Positions 16,434 to 20,877 of a stretch of DNA of 64,000 nucleotides are shown here, one piece after another (within the stretch, counting starts at the first letter, position 1; each line of letters opens with the position of its first letter). The notes beneath the pieces are model-generated. The model was not told the DNA's origin, did no database searches, and saw only the letters and a list, made by a program, of their open reading frames with translations. The translations under genes and the position numbers were made by a program. The DNA is from Pararhizobium sp. (GTDB lineage Bacteria; Pseudomonadota; Alphaproteobacteria; Rhizobiales; Rhizobiaceae). The stretch lies in assembly GCF_030655075.1 (NCBI RefSeq), contig NZ_JAURWE010000061.1. One strand, written 5' to 3'.

Positions 16434-17054
16434 CTGCTGGCTGTTGCGCTTGAAGCTGGATGCGGCTTTTATGAGTCATTCACCCGCGCTTTTCGCGACG
16501 AGTTCGGGGTTACCCCGGCAAGCCTGCGTGCGGCGGCGCGCCTCGATCATCTCAACCTGTTGGAACCTCCGAAAATGACCATCGATACGTTTTCCAAACT
16601 TGCCGAACCGACGATCGAAAAACTCGCATCTATGCGTCTCACCGGGCTCAAGGCCTTTCACGCCGACCCGGGCAGCATTCCGGCGCAATGGGGACAGTTC
16701 GCACCCCATATCCCGGTGCTGCAGCCGAAGAACTGCGTCACTTACGGTATCTGCTGGATGAAATCCTCCGGCGGCGAGGACTATATGTGCGCCGGCGAAG
16801 CCGCAAACACCGCCGATCTGCTGCCGGACTTCACGGTCGAAACCCTGCCGCCGATGACCTGTGCGGTCTTCTTCCACGCCGGTCATGTCTCGGCTATCCA
16901 CGAAACGGTGGACGCGATCTTTACCCACTGGATGCCGGCCTCCGGCCGCAAGCCGCTGCCTGATGGCCCGACCCTGATCGAACGCTACGACCGGCGGCTC
17001 AACCCCGAAACGGGAACGGGCGGCTTCGATATCCTGATTCCGCTGGAAGAGTGA
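16434..17054 (+). pseudogene. 5'-truncated AraC-family regulator with GyrI-like effector-binding domain
   Basis: The frame is open from 16287. It reads ...LAVALEAGCGFYESFTRAFRDEFGVTPASLR (second helix-turn-helix of an AraC domain), then a GyrI-like domain (ORF 16560-17054). The first HTH and N-terminus are absent; the upstream reading frame runs straight out of repeat copy 2. The GyrI-like part could still be made from ATG 16575. Confidence 0.6.
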
Positions 17055-17080
17055 CGGGCAGGGCGGATAGGAGGGATGGC

Positions 17081-17167
17081 GGATGAGGGGGGCAAAAACT
17101 CGGAGCCAGTGGTGAGATCCCTCATCGCCTCGGTTCGTCAGGCCCTTCTCGCCGCTGGGGAGAAGGG
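17081..17167. repeat. type-1 palindromic repeat element, copy 3 (partial)
   Basis: GGATGAGGGGGGC...GATCCCTCATCGCC...CTTCTCGCC-GCT-GGGGAGAAG, corresponding to the right half of copy 1. Confidence 0.75.
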
Positions 17168-17370
17168 CATCGAGGCAGGCTTGGAACGATATGAGGCGTT
17201 TTGGTCAAATTCGCCCAAACCGGAAACAGTAGCGATGAAGGCCTGATCTTTGTCGGCATATGCACTCTGCGCGACTGCCAGCGATTGCCGCTGGGCCTCG
17301 GCCTTGAAGGACATCTACTGAGAACGCAGGCGTGAGTAGTGTTCACCAGATTTTATACGCGAGGGCTCAT
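17138..17370 (-). pseudogene. decayed MazE-type (DUF3018-like) antitoxin gene remnant
   Basis: The minus strand reads MSPRV(stop)..KSGEHYSRLRSQ(stop)MSFKAEAQRQSLAVAQSAYADKDQAFIATVSGLGEFDQNA. The C-terminal part matches my memory of the DUF3018 antitoxin pattern (...EARRQSLAVA.S.H..EDQAFIDAVSD...). The central GLRPxQIWVPD segment is missing and two stops interrupt the frame. No toxin gene follows; the reading frame runs into repeat copy 3. Confidence 0.45.
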
Positions 17371-17372
17371 TT

Positions 17373-18155
17373 TCACCCATTGTTGCCGACAATAACAAGC
17401 AGACCTGACTTTTCAACATGAGCCTGACCTGTGGGCAGAATTTGTAACATTCCGGTTTTCTCATCAAAATGGACCCACGCCTTCTTGTGTAGGTCTTTTA
17501 AGACTCTACGCTTGAAATCAGTCCCGTTTTTATACTCCACCCAAGCTTGGATTTGCGCGACGGATACAGATTTTCCTTCAGCATACAACAATATTAAAAC
17601 CTTCTGACCCGCCGTTTTTGCCGGTTCCAAAACTCGCCGAAAGTTTCCATTAGACCAAACCATATGAAAAGTTCGAGCGGTAACCGCTTCTACAACTGCG
17701 TGAGATTCGGAGAACGGAAGTTGCGAACAATTGCGAACGAACTCGCCCATAATCCATTTCATGCCACGTAGGAACATTTCAGCGTCCATGTGATTAGGGC
17801 TCACGTCGGCAGACACATGACCAATTGCTCGATTGTTCCGAAGTTCATATAGAGCCGCCGATACCTTAGGTACCTGTATGCACAGCGAGCGACCCTTGGT
17901 GCCGTTGTATTGCTCTAGATCTCGACATGACTGCGGAAAATTGCTGGGTTTTGCTGGCACCGCAGCATAAGCTCCGGTTGCGTGCCCGGCACAAACACAG
18001 TAGGCGATCTCGCAGAATTTTCCCGCCTTGAGCCCCACTTTCTCCCAATCAGCGGCGCGATATTCATCAAGGGCTTGTTCGAACTCCTCAATTAGGGGAT
18101 CGCGCAGTGGCGCAGGGATGGACTTGAGTGTATCTTGAAGACTGGGAAGGCTCAA
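17373..18155 (-). CDS. hypothetical protein: N-terminal HEPN-like helical domain (ELRNNRAIGH, Rx6H) plus C-terminal winged-helix-like domain
   Basis: 260 aa. A TTG start overlaps the upstream stop (TTGA), with AGGA 7 nt upstream. The first in-frame ATG is codon 123, so the TTG is needed for the N-terminal domain. Sampled stretches are 40-45% GC against about 65% in thrS. No family recognised. Confidence 0.7.
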   Translation of the reverse strand: MSLPSLQDTLKSIPAPLRDPLIEEFEQALDEYRAADWEKVGLKAGKFCEIAYCVCAGHATGAYAAVPAKPSNFPQSCRDLEQYNGTKGRSLCIQVPKVSAALYELRNNRAIGHVSADVSPNHMDAEMFLRGMKWIMGEFVRNCSQLPFSESHAVVEAVTARTFHMVWSNGNFRRVLEPAKTAGQKVLILLYAEGKSVSVAQIQAWVEYKNGTDFKRRVLKDLHKKAWVHFDEKTGMLQILPTGQAHVEKSGLLVIVGNNG

Positions 18156-18625
18156 GTGGCCGTCCTATCCCAATAATATTGCCAAGGCCCTTTGTTGTCT
18201 TTGGTCCGTTGAAGGCTGCCTTTGTTAAAGAGACTACTAGTGGCGGCGCCGACTTGATTTAGGTTGTGTGTCCAGCCCTTGATTCTTAACGCAAGTACTA
18301 TAGCTCCTGGCCCACGATGCTCTTTGAAAAAGCCCTCATCTTTCAAGATTTGAATGCGGGCCGGGCAAGATTGTCCAGCGGGTGGCTGTTTCATCGACTT
18401 ACGCACACGCTTTTTAGATACATCTGCATTTTCGTTTAAAGTGTTTTCCTCTGTAAACAGCGGTTCATCAACGACTTCGTTTATTTCAACACTTTGTGGA
18501 CGATTTCCAAAACCTGCCTTTTCTATAAGCGGGAATAGCTTCGTCAACATGCCTTCAACAAACTCCTTTTCGCCTTCGACGTCTATGACACCAGCGGGAG
18601 CGTCAATATGAATGCGGTCTGTCAT
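18152..18625 (-). CDS. hypothetical protein: small N-terminal domain, charged linker, C-terminal winged-helix-like domain
   Basis: 157 aa. GAAGAGG SD lies 4 nt before the ATG at 18625. AT-rich. The C-terminus ARIQILKDEGFF...IVLALRIKGW...NKGSLQRTKDNKGPWQYYW looks like an Mrr_N-type wHTH. Translationally coupled to the downstream gene. Confidence 0.7.
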   Translation of the reverse strand: MTDRIHIDAPAGVIDVEGEKEFVEGMLTKLFPLIEKAGFGNRPQSVEINEVVDEPLFTEENTLNENADVSKKRVRKSMKQPPAGQSCPARIQILKDEGFFKEHRGPGAIVLALRIKGWTHNLNQVGAATSSLFNKGSLQRTKDNKGPWQYYWDRTAT

Positions 18626-18897
18626 GCTACCTCTTCGATAATGGTTGCTTCGCTATATTCTCCGAAGTTGTAGACCGATCAAGGTGTTTTTTGTGCCAAA
18701 TACGTTGCCGACATTGATGTGGATTTTGGGTTTACCAACCACCTCGTAAAACTCCAAAGCAATCCAGTCTAAATCCTCCACCCCCTTCCCATCTCCCCCC
18801 AATCCCTTTATACCGCGCGGCGCACGCGCCGGCTCGTCCCGGCAATCGCTCACCCCACCCGCATTCGTTGGCGGGACTGGAAAATTGGAGAAGACCG

Positions 18898-20877
18898 ATG
18901 TCCGTTTCCCTGACTTTTCCCGATGGCTCTGTTCGCGACTACGCCGAAGGCACGTCCGGCCGCGAGGTTGCTGAATCGATTTCGAAATCGTTGGCCAAGA
19001 AGGCGGTCGCCATCGCCATCGACGGCAGCTTGCGCGATCTGTCCGATGCGGTCGTGACCGGCAGGCTCGAGATCGTCACCCGCGACGATCCGCGCGCGCT
19101 CGAACTGATCCGTCACGATGCCGCCCATGTGATGGCCGAAGCCGTGCAGGAGCTGTTTCCGGGAACGCAGGTGACCATCGGCCCGGTCATCGACAACGGC
19201 TTCTACTACGACTTCGCCAAGGCCGAACCTTTCACGCCGGACGATCTGCCGAAGATCGAAAAGAAGATGAAAGAGATCATCCTGCGCAACAAGCCCTTCA
19301 CGAAAGAGGTCTGGTCGCGCGACAAGGCGAAAGAAGTCTTTGCCGCCAAGGGCGAGGCCTACAAGCTCGAGCTGATCGACGCCATTCCCGAGGGCCAGAA
19401 CCTCAACATTTATGCGCAGGGCGACTGGTTCGACCTCTGCCGCGGCCCGCACATGGCCTCCACCGGCCAGATCGGCAATGCCTTCAAGCTGATGAAGGTG
19501 GCCGGTGCCTATTGGCGCGGCGATAGTAACAATGTCATGCTGACGCGCATCTACGGCACCGCCTGGCACAGCCAGGAAGAGCTCGACCAGTATCTGCATG
19601 TGCTGGCCGAGGCCGAAAAGCGCGATCACCGCAAGCTCGGCCGCGAGATGGACCTGTTCCTTTTCCAGGAAGTGGGCCCCGGCGTCGTCTTCTGGCACGG
19701 CAAGGGCTGGCGTGTCTTCCAGACGCTTGTCGCCTATATGCGCCGGCGCCTGGCCGGCACCTATCAGGAGGTCAACGCGCCGCAGGTGCTCGACAAGTCG
19801 CTGTGGGAAACGTCCGGCCACTGGGGCTGGTACCGCGACAACATGTTCAAGGTGACCGTGGCCGGCGACGAGACCGACGACGAGCGTGTCTTCGCGCTGA
19901 AACCGATGAACTGCCCGGGCCATGTGCAGATCTTCAAACATGGCCTCAAGAGCTACCGCGAGCTGCCCATTCGCCTCGCCGAATTCGGCAATGTCCACCG
20001 CTACGAGCCCTCGGGCGCGCTGCACGGGCTGATGCGCGTGCGCGGCTTCACCCAGGACGACGCCCATGTCTTCTGCACCGACGAGCAGATGGCGGCCGAG
20101 TGCCTCAGGATCAACGACCTGATCCTCTCGGTCTACAAGGATTTCGGTTTCGACGGCGAGATCACCATCAAGCTCTCGACCCGGCCGGAAAAGCGCGTCG
20201 GCGAGGATCACCTCTGGGACCGCGCCGAAAGCGTCATGACCGAGGTTCTCGGCACGATCCAGAAACAGGCCAACAACATCCGCACCGGCATCCTGCCGGG
20301 CGAGGGTGCGTTTTATGGGCCGAAGTTCGAATATACGTTGAAAGACGCCATCGGCCGCGAATGGCAGTGCGGCACGACGCAGGTCGACTTCAACCTGCCG
20401 GAACGGTTTGGCGCCTTCTACATCAACCAGAACTCGGAAAAGCAGCAGCCTGTGATGATCCACCGCGCCATCTGCGGCTCGATGGAACGGTTCCTCGGCA
20501 TTCTCATCGAGAACTTCGCCGGCCATTTCCCGCTGTGGCTGTCGCCGCTGCAGGTGGTGGTGGCGACGATCACGTCCGAGGCCGACGACTACGGCCGCGA
20601 GGTGGCCGAGCTTCTGCGCGAGGCGGGGTTGGAGGTCGAGACCGACTTCCGCAACGAGAAGATCAACTACAAGGTCCGCGAGCACTCGGTGACCAAGGTG
20701 CCGGTGATCATCGTCTGCGGCATGCGCGAGGCCGAGGAACGCTCGGTCAACATCCGCCGCCTCGGCAGCCAGGCGCAGACGCCGATGTCGCTCGACGATG
20801 CCATCGCCTCGCTGGTGGATGAAGCAACGCCGCCGGACCTGAAGCGCAAGGCGGCCGCCAAAGCTGCCCGGGCTTAA
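18898..20877 (+). CDS. thrS: threonyl-tRNA synthetase
   Basis: TGS domain start [15 protein letters not shown]; class II motifs (FRxE-like [11 protein letters not shown]; NCPGHVQIF; [13 protein letters not shown]). GGAG SD before the ATG at 18898. Confidence 0.95.

Follow-up and report, generated by a model that had tools for sequence, protein, structure and literature searches.

An overlapping gene pair of Pararhizobium encoding a HEPN-like/winged-helix protein and its winged-helix partner: a candidate toxin–antitoxin or abortive-infection cassette

Introduction

What purpose could be served by two small, AT-rich genes that overlap by four nucleotides, lie beside thrS in a Pararhizobium genome and encode proteins belonging to no family named in the libraries searched? 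The pair, designated here genes A and B, is found on the minus strand of a 64,000-nt stretch of DNA from Pararhizobium sp. (“the window”, to which all coordinates refer unless another locus is named), and an earlier note on this stretch had regarded it as a candidate toxin or defence module. The analysis presented here suggests that the cassette is, on balance, a self-contained two-gene conflict module of the toxin–antitoxin (TA) or abortive-infection kind, equipped with its own promoter, in which B would be the effector and A the protein holding it in check. Such a module would entail a HEPN fold and an RNase activity of B, an interaction between the two proteins, autoregulation, toxicity and a role in defence, all of which we infer.

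Organization and composition of the cassette

The ORF listing (open reading frames) and the sequence yield the following layout.

18152–18625, minus strand: gene A, ATG start, 157 aa, putative winged-helix regulator or neutralizer
17373–18155, minus strand: gene B, TTG start, 260 aa, putative RNase effector
18152–18155, minus strand: TTGA overlap, made of the stop codon TGA of A (18154–18152) and the start codon TTG of B (18155–18153)
18654–18682, minus strand: predicted promoter-like block, with a −35 element TTGATC (18682–18677), a 17-nt spacer and a −10 element AATATA (18659–18654)
17250–18750 (approximately), no strand: low-GC islet delimited by the composition profile, with the promoter and both genes inside

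Two minus-strand genes joined by a TTGA overlap and each provided with its own Shine–Dalgarno sequence is indeed what the earlier note had described. As read from the sequence, A is preceded by the purine-rich GAAGAGG (18636–18630, minus strand) and B by AGGA (18166–18163, minus strand), which falls within the 3′ end of gene A, 7 nt before the TTG. The overlap couples the translation of the two genes. Reading in frame, B has no ATG before codon 123 (NHM123D), again as the note had stated, so that the coupled TTG is required for synthesis of the N-terminal domain of B.

A and B are real genes, a conclusion resting on their homologues in a collection of 5.8 billion proteins (287 close ones for B and 105 for A, the latter always immediately upstream of B), on low non-synonymous divergence (dN) at saturated synonymous sites and on the adjacency of the two genes in intact related loci. 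The foreign composition attributed to the cassette is borne out as well: in 300-nt windows the GC content of the islet is 0.44–0.55 vs 0.60–0.67 in the flanks, and the GC content at third codon positions (GC3) is 0.44 in A and 0.48 in B as compared with 0.86 in the neighbouring thrS (18868–20877), the other flank being occupied by a GyrI-like gene (16560–17054). Promoter included, the cassette measures 1.3 kb.

The sequence CTTGATC, followed after ~17 nt by an A/T-rich hexamer, recurs 40–60 nt ahead of A in many loci that show no other resemblance in their flanks, and this promoter-like block would travel with the cassette as its own promoter. A generic consensus promoter scan did not call the conserved block upstream of A, and a generic terminator scan found no terminator after B.

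Protein B and the nature of its N-terminal domain

If B is an effector, what kind of enzyme could it be? AlphaFold2 (AF2) models of A and B were built on the family alignments A1 (44 sequences) and A2 (52 sequences), and conservation was read from alignment A3, which holds 112 full-length B homologues, 23–50% identical to the window protein, retrieved by a profile search of 1.84 billion cluster representatives; a further alignment, A4, covers the N-terminal domain of B (residues 10–163). The model of B has a mean pLDDT of 81 and, together with A3, defines these features.

17667–18128, minus strand: B residues 10–163, all-α HEPN-like domain (AF2 helices 15–33, 37–60, 73–87 as insert, 95–107, 120–143 and 148–162)
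17406–17660, minus strand: B residues 166–250, winged helix-turn-helix, wHTH (AF2, pLDDT 87–95; Foldseek)
17817–17840, minus strand: R106-N107-N-R109-A-I-G-H113, candidate HEPN catalytic motif of the type Rx6H, i.e. R-φ-X5-H (conservation in A3)
18009–18011, minus strand: E49, conserved acidic residue in helix 37–60 (E in 109 of the 112 sequences of A3)

HEPN domains have been defined (Anantharaman et al. 2013, PMC3710099) by a four-helix up-and-down core consisting of two α-hairpins, often with an insert between helices 2 and 3, by an Rx4-6H motif placed at the end of core helix 3 and in the following loop, by a polar residue (N, D or H) directly after the R and by a second conserved acidic residue in helix 2, typically in the form Ex3[KR]; the non-catalytic members typically lose the Rx4-6H motif (PMC3710099). 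The order of the helices in the B model is that of such a core, with helices 15–33 and 37–60 separated by the insert 73–87 from helices 95–107 and 120–143. The motif lies where it should, R106 being the second-to-last residue of helix 95–107 and H113 a residue of the next loop. In A3 these two residues are conserved in 110 and 111 of the 112 sequences, respectively, and are six residues apart in 106 of 109, whereas the polar position that follows R106 is N107 in 102 and S in 8 of 112. E49 corresponds to the acidic residue of helix 2, and four positions further on residue 53 is R or K in 61 of 112 sequences (54%), as opposed to C, S or T in the alphaproteobacterial clade that includes the window protein. 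Also conserved are R109 (110 of 112), D124, which is invariant, and W134, E138 and R141, each conserved in >90% of the sequences.

Which branch of the HEPN proteins could B be closest to? The sole Pfam family matched repeatedly by members of the B family is Abi_C (PF14355), always below threshold: 5 of 44 and then 6 of 112 members matched it, with a best E of 0.011, and in all 11 of 156 member scans fell at E 0.011–0.1. In homologue P0226 the match aligns residues 97–133 with positions 38–76 of the 83 of the profile, that is with the motif region, and another homologue (P0111) carries in UniRef the name “Abi-like C-terminal domain”. SadR of S. aureus, an experimentally tested Abi_C RNase, has the motif RNEYGDAH and loses both RNase and defence activity upon mutation of its R, N or H, five X residues being reported as the commonest motif spacing among Abi_C proteins (PMC13590631). 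It is the SadR-like R-N-X5-H spacing, together with the recurrent sub-threshold matches, that points to the AbiJ/Abi_C branch. Motif and secondary structure thus suggest that residues 10–163 of B are HEPN-like and probably constitute a divergent AbiJ/Abi_C-related RNase domain, which is not filed here under PF14355.

A number of results speak against this assignment. B has no significant sequence or fold match to any HEPN family in Pfam, PDB profiles or Foldseek, and the PDB sequences, whether searched with the single proteins, with the full-length profile A3 or with the N-domain profile A4, gave neither a HEPN nor any other informative match. The Abi_C match of P0226 scores 12.6 bits vs a cut-off of 24, and the window protein itself does not match PF14355 at E≤10. 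The only HEPN entry in the Foldseek list, the solved toxin 8yuf_A, has an E of 0.98 and a probability of 0.44, the query being full-length B and the list being dominated by wHTH proteins. Finally, the motif loop itself (residues 112–115) is modelled with a pLDDT <50. The HEPN reading put forward in the earlier note is thus backed by the near-invariance and the position of R106 and H113, and by no significant profile or fold score.

The C-terminal domain of B is less problematic. Foldseek aligns it over 75–80 residues with MarR/BpsR/MepR-type domains (probability 0.99–1.0, rmsd ~3 Å), and wHTH proteins are the only matches of the B model in a library of viral structures; the models and Foldseek thereby confirm the winged helix that had been predicted at the C-terminus of both A and B.

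As the note had surmised, the two proteins are covered by no named family in the searched libraries: hmmscan of A and B against Pfam, NCBIfam, PHROGs and PADLOC at E≤10 returned nothing meaningful. A RibLong match at E 0.13, which emerged from a scan of a family library, was dismissed as due to chance.

Protein A and its counterparts

What does the partner look like? The AF2 model of A (mean pLDDT 77.5) divides the protein into three parts.

18506–18625, minus strand: A residues 1–40, small ββα domain (AF2 strands 4–8 and 13–17, helix 20–37; pLDDT 84–92)
18386–18505, minus strand: A residues 41–80, disordered charged linker (pLDDT <50 at residues 42–73; no alignment consensus)
18167–18385, minus strand: A residues 81–153, winged helix-turn-helix (AF2, pLDDT 93–96; Foldseek)

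The N-terminal domain is marked by the motif RxHIDAPxGxxExEGExxFVE, whose specified columns are invariant in the alignment and whose type recurs in distant partners. The winged helix superimposes over ~70 residues on the DNA-binding domains of Fur, Zur, RosR, MecI and PadR (Foldseek E 3.5e-3, probability 1.0, rmsd 1.5–2.7 Å). The labels DUF3489 and “Nuclease” attached to some A homologues in UniRef were not reproduced by per-member Pfam scans and were discarded.

In the survey for co-occurrence called for by the earlier note, A and B are adjacent in every intact related locus. Where the identity of B to the window protein reaches 44% or more, a recognizable A homologue is found immediately upstream. 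At the more distant loci, where the A profile no longer matches, a same-strand ORF of ~105–214 aa abuts B in ~50 of 61 loci, and the gap between partner and B is most often −4 to +13 nt (61 loci compared), so that the coupling is conserved. These distant partners have the plan of A, namely a small N-terminal domain, a low-complexity linker and, among the C-termini inspected, an ~80-residue segment that looks like a winged helix. Their N-terminal domains are of at least three interchangeable types, one being the ββα “EGxxxF/W” type present in A, and are swapped between lineages. A Pfam scan of sampled partners gave no match except a weak PadR match on one C-terminus.

Seven loci have three-gene operons in which two tandem partner genes precede B.

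L030, 6810–8750
L031, 5531–7446
L041, 6849–8747
L049, 6988–8771
L051, 6926–8765
L053, 1421–3269
L056, 7120–8738

Their hosts are Mesorhizobium B2-1-3A, Solirubrobacterales, Sphingosinicella, Saccharibacteria, Dormibacteria and Woesearchaeota. At a further locus, from a gammaproteobacterial metagenome-assembled genome (MAG), A and B are preceded by two extra same-strand genes of 163 and 236 aa lacking any Pfam match (L023, 6148–7359); the 163-aa product has a homologue in the additional upstream partner of L041, a hint that the small proteins accompanying the pair are drawn from a wider pool.

Spread and selection of the B family

The B family is large, patchy, both bacterial and archaeal, and described by no database searched. 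Its profile collects 1030 clusters at 50% identity with E≤1e-3, 557 of them with E≤1e-10, nearly all of 250–270 aa and matching end to end. A scan of one genome per species gave 56 B loci, distributed among Alpha-, Gamma- and Betaproteobacteria, Acidobacteriota, Actinomycetota, Bacteroidota, Cyanobacteria, Nitrospirota, Chloroflexota, Planctomycetota, Patescibacteria/Saccharibacteria and Woesearchaeota.

In pairwise comparisons of the window cassette with ten other loci synonymous sites are saturated and dN is 0.09–0.30 for B and 0.22–0.50 for A. Saturated synonymous divergence combined with low dN indicates strong purifying selection, with A evolving ~1.3–5 times faster than B. The peculiar composition is not confined to the window, for the GC3 of the cassette is 0.44–0.76 in all 24 alphaproteobacterial loci (among L001–L027), in host flanks of 58–69% GC. 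Since GC3 is low despite saturated synonymous divergence, the AT-richness has not been ameliorated and seems to be maintained, whether by turnover or by selection.

Genomic context and mobility

The sites occupied by the pair differ widely, as illustrated by the following loci.

Window, Pararhizobium: pair adjoining thrS
L001, metagenome contig: pair adjoining uvrA
L005, metagenome contig: pair adjoining uvrB
L004, Sphingomonas cannabina: pair between a TPP enzyme gene and a tRNA-Ser gene, the latter 71 bp downstream (L004 10797–10886)
L065, Rhizobium sp. NLR8a: small islet with a GmrSD type IV restriction gene (L065 3920–5305)
L066, Rhizobium sp. KAs_5_22: pair beside an asparaginase gene

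The different insertion sites across the Rhizobiaceae imply that in this family the pair is accessory and not tied to thrS. The DNA similarity between the window cassette and the other alphaproteobacterial copies amounts to 66–75% and ends at the ORF boundaries, save for the promoter-like block. No significant direct or inverted repeats flank the cassette, the 10–11-nt matches found being at chance level; no tRNA gene was found within the window, and an Rfam scan of its 13–22 kb portion gave only a spurious lncRNA match.

Signs of mobility are met elsewhere. In a Solirubrobacterales MAG an integrase gene lies directly upstream of the three-gene operon, with a type I hsdM beyond it and a tRNA-Met gene downstream (L031 4097–5278 and 7588–7661), and P4-type integrases are found three to four genes away in L013 (11146–12456) and L018 (11846–13174), from Novosphingobium and Sphingomonas. 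The cassette is, furthermore, decaying in some genomes, as judged from insertion sequences: in Neorhizobium petrolearium the two genes have been separated by elements with an IS110-family and a DDE_Tnp_1 transposase (L002 7638–9858), and in a Blastomonas MAG an ISXO2-like transposase interrupts B (L028 5992–7983).

When four genes on each side of the pair were clustered at 60 loci no conserved third gene emerged, the largest cluster, of generic ABC/UvrA-type ATPases, comprising 6 loci. A GIY-YIG nuclease-family gene considered as a possible associate is immediately 3′ and convergent in L001 (11056–11520, minus strand) and L002 (10908–11192, minus strand), whose contexts have nothing in common, and was set aside as not general across these 60 loci. 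In the vicinity of the pair in L001 and L005 further DNA-repair or nuclease genes are seen, namely uvrA, uvrB, NucS and a DUF559/Vsr-like gene.

In the window, the “decayed antitoxin” gene that the earlier note had placed next to the cassette finds no support. The ORF in question (56 aa, MADEGGKNSEPVVRSLIASVRQALLAAGEKGIEAGLERYEAFW..., 17076–17246, plus strand) is annotated as a gene in the public contig record and has no Pfam match at E≤1. In or beside it, downstream of the GyrI-like gene, is a hairpin (17142–17168) with 12-nt arms (GCCCTTCTCGCC / GGGGAGAAGGGC) and a 3-nt loop; it could be of the REP type or terminator-like, and may be the “repeat element” mentioned in the same note.

Comparison with known systems

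Does the cassette belong to one of the systems already described? With AbiJ/Abi_C proteins (PF14355; SadR, Lactococcus AbiJ) B shares the R-N-X5-H spacing reported to predominate among them, the repeated Abi_C matches over the motif region and an accessory, patchy occurrence. On the other hand, its best score (12.6 bits) lies well below the gathering score of 24; the HEPN domain of AbiJ and SadR is C-terminal, behind AbiJ-NTD or HTH-like domains, and acts alone, whereas the HEPN-like domain of B is N-terminal, has a winged helix behind it and is nearly always accompanied by the product of a coupled upstream gene; and R109, D124, W134, E138 and R141 are conserved residues specific to B.

The HEPN-MNT modules (HepT-MntA, type II/VII TA) are likewise small cassettes of two coupled genes with a predicted HEPN RNase toxin. 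Unlike these, the present cassette has no minimal nucleotidyltransferase (MNT), as the earlier note had also observed: the partner consists of a ββα domain and a winged helix, and thrS and the GyrI-like gene are the flanking genes. A neutralization by AMPylation is thus impossible. Moreover, the motif of B is Rx6H and not Rx4H, B possesses a winged helix of its own and the fold match to 8yuf_A is not significant.

A closer parallel as to mechanism is offered by the type IX retron (Retron-Kva2), in which a winged-helix protein of solved structure wraps the HEPN nuclease and silences it until phage attack. The HEPN nuclease there, like the HEPN-like B here, is combined with a separate protein having small α/β domains and a C-terminal HTH or winged helix, and the wrapping protein constitutes a mechanistic precedent for a restraint of B by A. 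The differences are nevertheless substantial. No reverse transcriptase was found among the clustered neighbours at the 60 loci or among the top 25 of the 137 Pfam families of the flanks (an ncRNA was not sought), and in the window it is thrS and the GyrI-like gene that flank the pair; the retron HEPN lacks a canonical Rx4-6H motif and has no detected sequence similarity to B; and in the retron the winged helix is on the partner only, whereas the nuclease candidate B carries one as well.

As to type II TA operons, the likeness concerns the layout, with a small DNA-binding protein followed by a predicted enzyme across a stop/start overlap, the predicted promoter of its own, the faster evolution of the partner, the swapping of partner N-domains and the isolated copies between housekeeping genes. 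What is unlike is that the DNA-binding domain of A is C-terminal, of the Fur/PadR winged-helix type and placed behind a long disordered linker, that the putative toxin is large (260 aa) and has its own domain of DNA-binding type, that there are loci with a disrupted A and an intact B, and that no plasmid-borne copies were found.

In the HEPN survey, fusions with a wHTH are described only in giant helicase/restriction endonuclease (REase) proteins and in the EC042_2821 family, and the architecture of B is not described. In its working the module would most resemble the HEPN toxin and Abi modules, yet it falls outside every named family with which it was compared. New here are the HEPN-like family, its architecture (HEPN-like domain N-terminal, winged helix C-terminal) and the type of partner (ββα domain, linker and winged helix, sometimes in two copies); the functional type represented by HEPN toxins and Abi proteins is already richly populated.

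Proposed mechanism and alternative explanations

How could such a module operate? B would be the effector, its N-terminal domain being a divergent HEPN RNase whose closest relatives are those of the AbiJ/Abi_C branch, with R106, N107 and H113 plus E49 from helix 2 as the likely catalytic residues and with an active site presumably formed across a HEPN dimer of B; its C-terminal winged helix would tether or target the enzyme to nucleic acid, or else mediate assembly. Translational coupling would ensure that A is made in fixed stoichiometry with B. The C-terminal winged helix of A probably binds the cassette promoter, thereby giving autoregulation, or some other nucleic acid, and its ββα N-domain (or the linker) is probably the part that touches B and holds the RNase inactive. 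Infection, foreign nucleic acid or the loss of A could be the trigger for the release of B, whereupon RNA cleavage would arrest growth. The order and coupling of the genes, a partner that evolves faster and can be swapped, and the isolation of the islets make up the type II TA pattern.

Several observations weigh against this conflict module. In Mesorhizobium neociceri CCANP35 a frameshift is present near codon 10 of A (L022 7350–8010), and in Tabrizicola flagellatus SYSU G03088 an in-frame stop interrupts the A linker (L024 7300–8010), the B ORF being intact in both; the former B keeps ELRNNRAIGH and NHMDAE and the latter likewise has an intact R-N-x5-H motif. These lesions possibly reflect an assembly error, a functional split or fragments of A, or tolerance of B without A; a disrupted A beside an intact B is unexpected for an indispensable antitoxin and represents mild evidence against a simple addiction module. 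B is 70–86% identical across alphaproteobacterial orders, a slow evolution compared with that of many fast-evolving toxins. Searches of 72,556 plasmids and 50,697 phages (tblastn) and of IMG/VR (pattern scan) gave no homologues, and neither A nor B matches a PADLOC-DB v2 model at E≤10. A census of the flanks (150 ORFs, 39 loci) yielded 137 Pfam families, overwhelmingly housekeeping, and no clear defence-island enrichment; the defence genes encountered in it are one C5-methyltransferase/REase pair, one type IV REase, mad2/mad3 and two HNH_2. Thus, of the accessory or defence context envisaged for the cassette in the earlier note, the accessory part is upheld by the foreign composition and by the variable loci in Rhizobiaceae, whereas a defence-island or prophage setting is not general.

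The lesions of A in these two loci and the unusual conservation of B keep two other explanations live. One is that the pair is regulatory and contains no toxin, A and B being winged-helix regulators or nucleoid-associated proteins of a small mobile islet and the helical domain of B a non-catalytic HEPN-like domain of the MtlR type or some other sensor binding a ligand, RNA or protein. This would account for the presence in every component of a winged helix of the Fur/MarR/PadR class, for the strong purifying selection on a highly conserved B, for the survival of B beside a disrupted A, for the mostly housekeeping contexts and for the failure of all catalytic HEPN families to give a significant match; regulators with a non-catalytic HEPN domain, MtlR for one, are known. 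We consider it unlikely: non-catalytic HEPN domains typically lose the Rx4-6H motif, whereas in B the R, N, H and helix-2 E are retained in 91–99% of the 112 sequences, and a sparse cross-phylum spread, variable loci and a low GC content are hard to square with a regulator devoid of conserved targets nearby. The other, to which we likewise assign a low probability, makes A a co-sensor or adaptor within an abortive-infection or sensor system: on recognizing foreign DNA or RNA, the winged-helix complex would activate the B nuclease instead of restraining it. Tolerance of a disrupted A would be natural in this case, the two different winged-helix partners with interchangeable N-domains found in distant lineages are reminiscent of modular sensors, single-gene Abi_C RNases, SadR among them, need no antitoxin for defence, and some loci have restriction–modification, GmrSD or integrase neighbours; yet a small DNA-binding protein encoded first and an enzyme second, in coupled genes, is the classic type II TA layout, and the only structural precedent found, that of the type IX retron, is one of inhibition by a winged-helix protein. 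Finally, should the N-terminal domain of B not be a HEPN at all, B could combine a helical scaffold of some unrelated kind with the winged helix behind it, as in PCI proteins, with another chemistry or a structural role. It is to PCI proteins (COP9 signalosome, eIF3, proteasome lid) that the best full-length Foldseek E-values belong (0.15–0.9), and no HEPN profile is above threshold; but the alignments are not meaningful (probability 0.1–0.38, TM 0.16–0.22, rmsd 17–23 Å) and these matches were rejected, PCI domains lack an invariant R-N-x5-H / E / D constellation, and the motif position with its accompanying features fits HEPN point by point, so that we regard this explanation as very improbable indeed.

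Returning to the conflict module, a wider possibility, which we advance tentatively and hold to be doubtful, is that the family represents an unrecognized pan-prokaryotic class of RNase-based immunity or addiction systems having a winged helix in every subunit, in which one or two interchangeable adaptors and a HEPN-wHTH effector would come together on nucleic acid. A new HEPN branch would then be activated when foreign DNA or RNA is recognized or the adaptor is lost, by a sensing logic distinct from those of HEPN-MNT, AbiJ, Cas13/Csm6 and retron IX.

Significance

The cassette is compact, readily testable and widely distributed. Should B prove non-catalytic, the family would be a widespread mobile pair of DNA-binding proteins, worth knowing if less striking. 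If, on the other hand, B is an active HEPN RNase, it would stand for a large unannotated branch of HEPN toxin or defence proteins, comprising >1000 clusters at 50% identity in many phyla, including Candidate Phyla Radiation (CPR) bacteria and Woesearchaeota. Since the family escapes Pfam, NCBIfam, PHROGs and PADLOC alike, it goes unnoticed in the present censuses of defence and TA systems.

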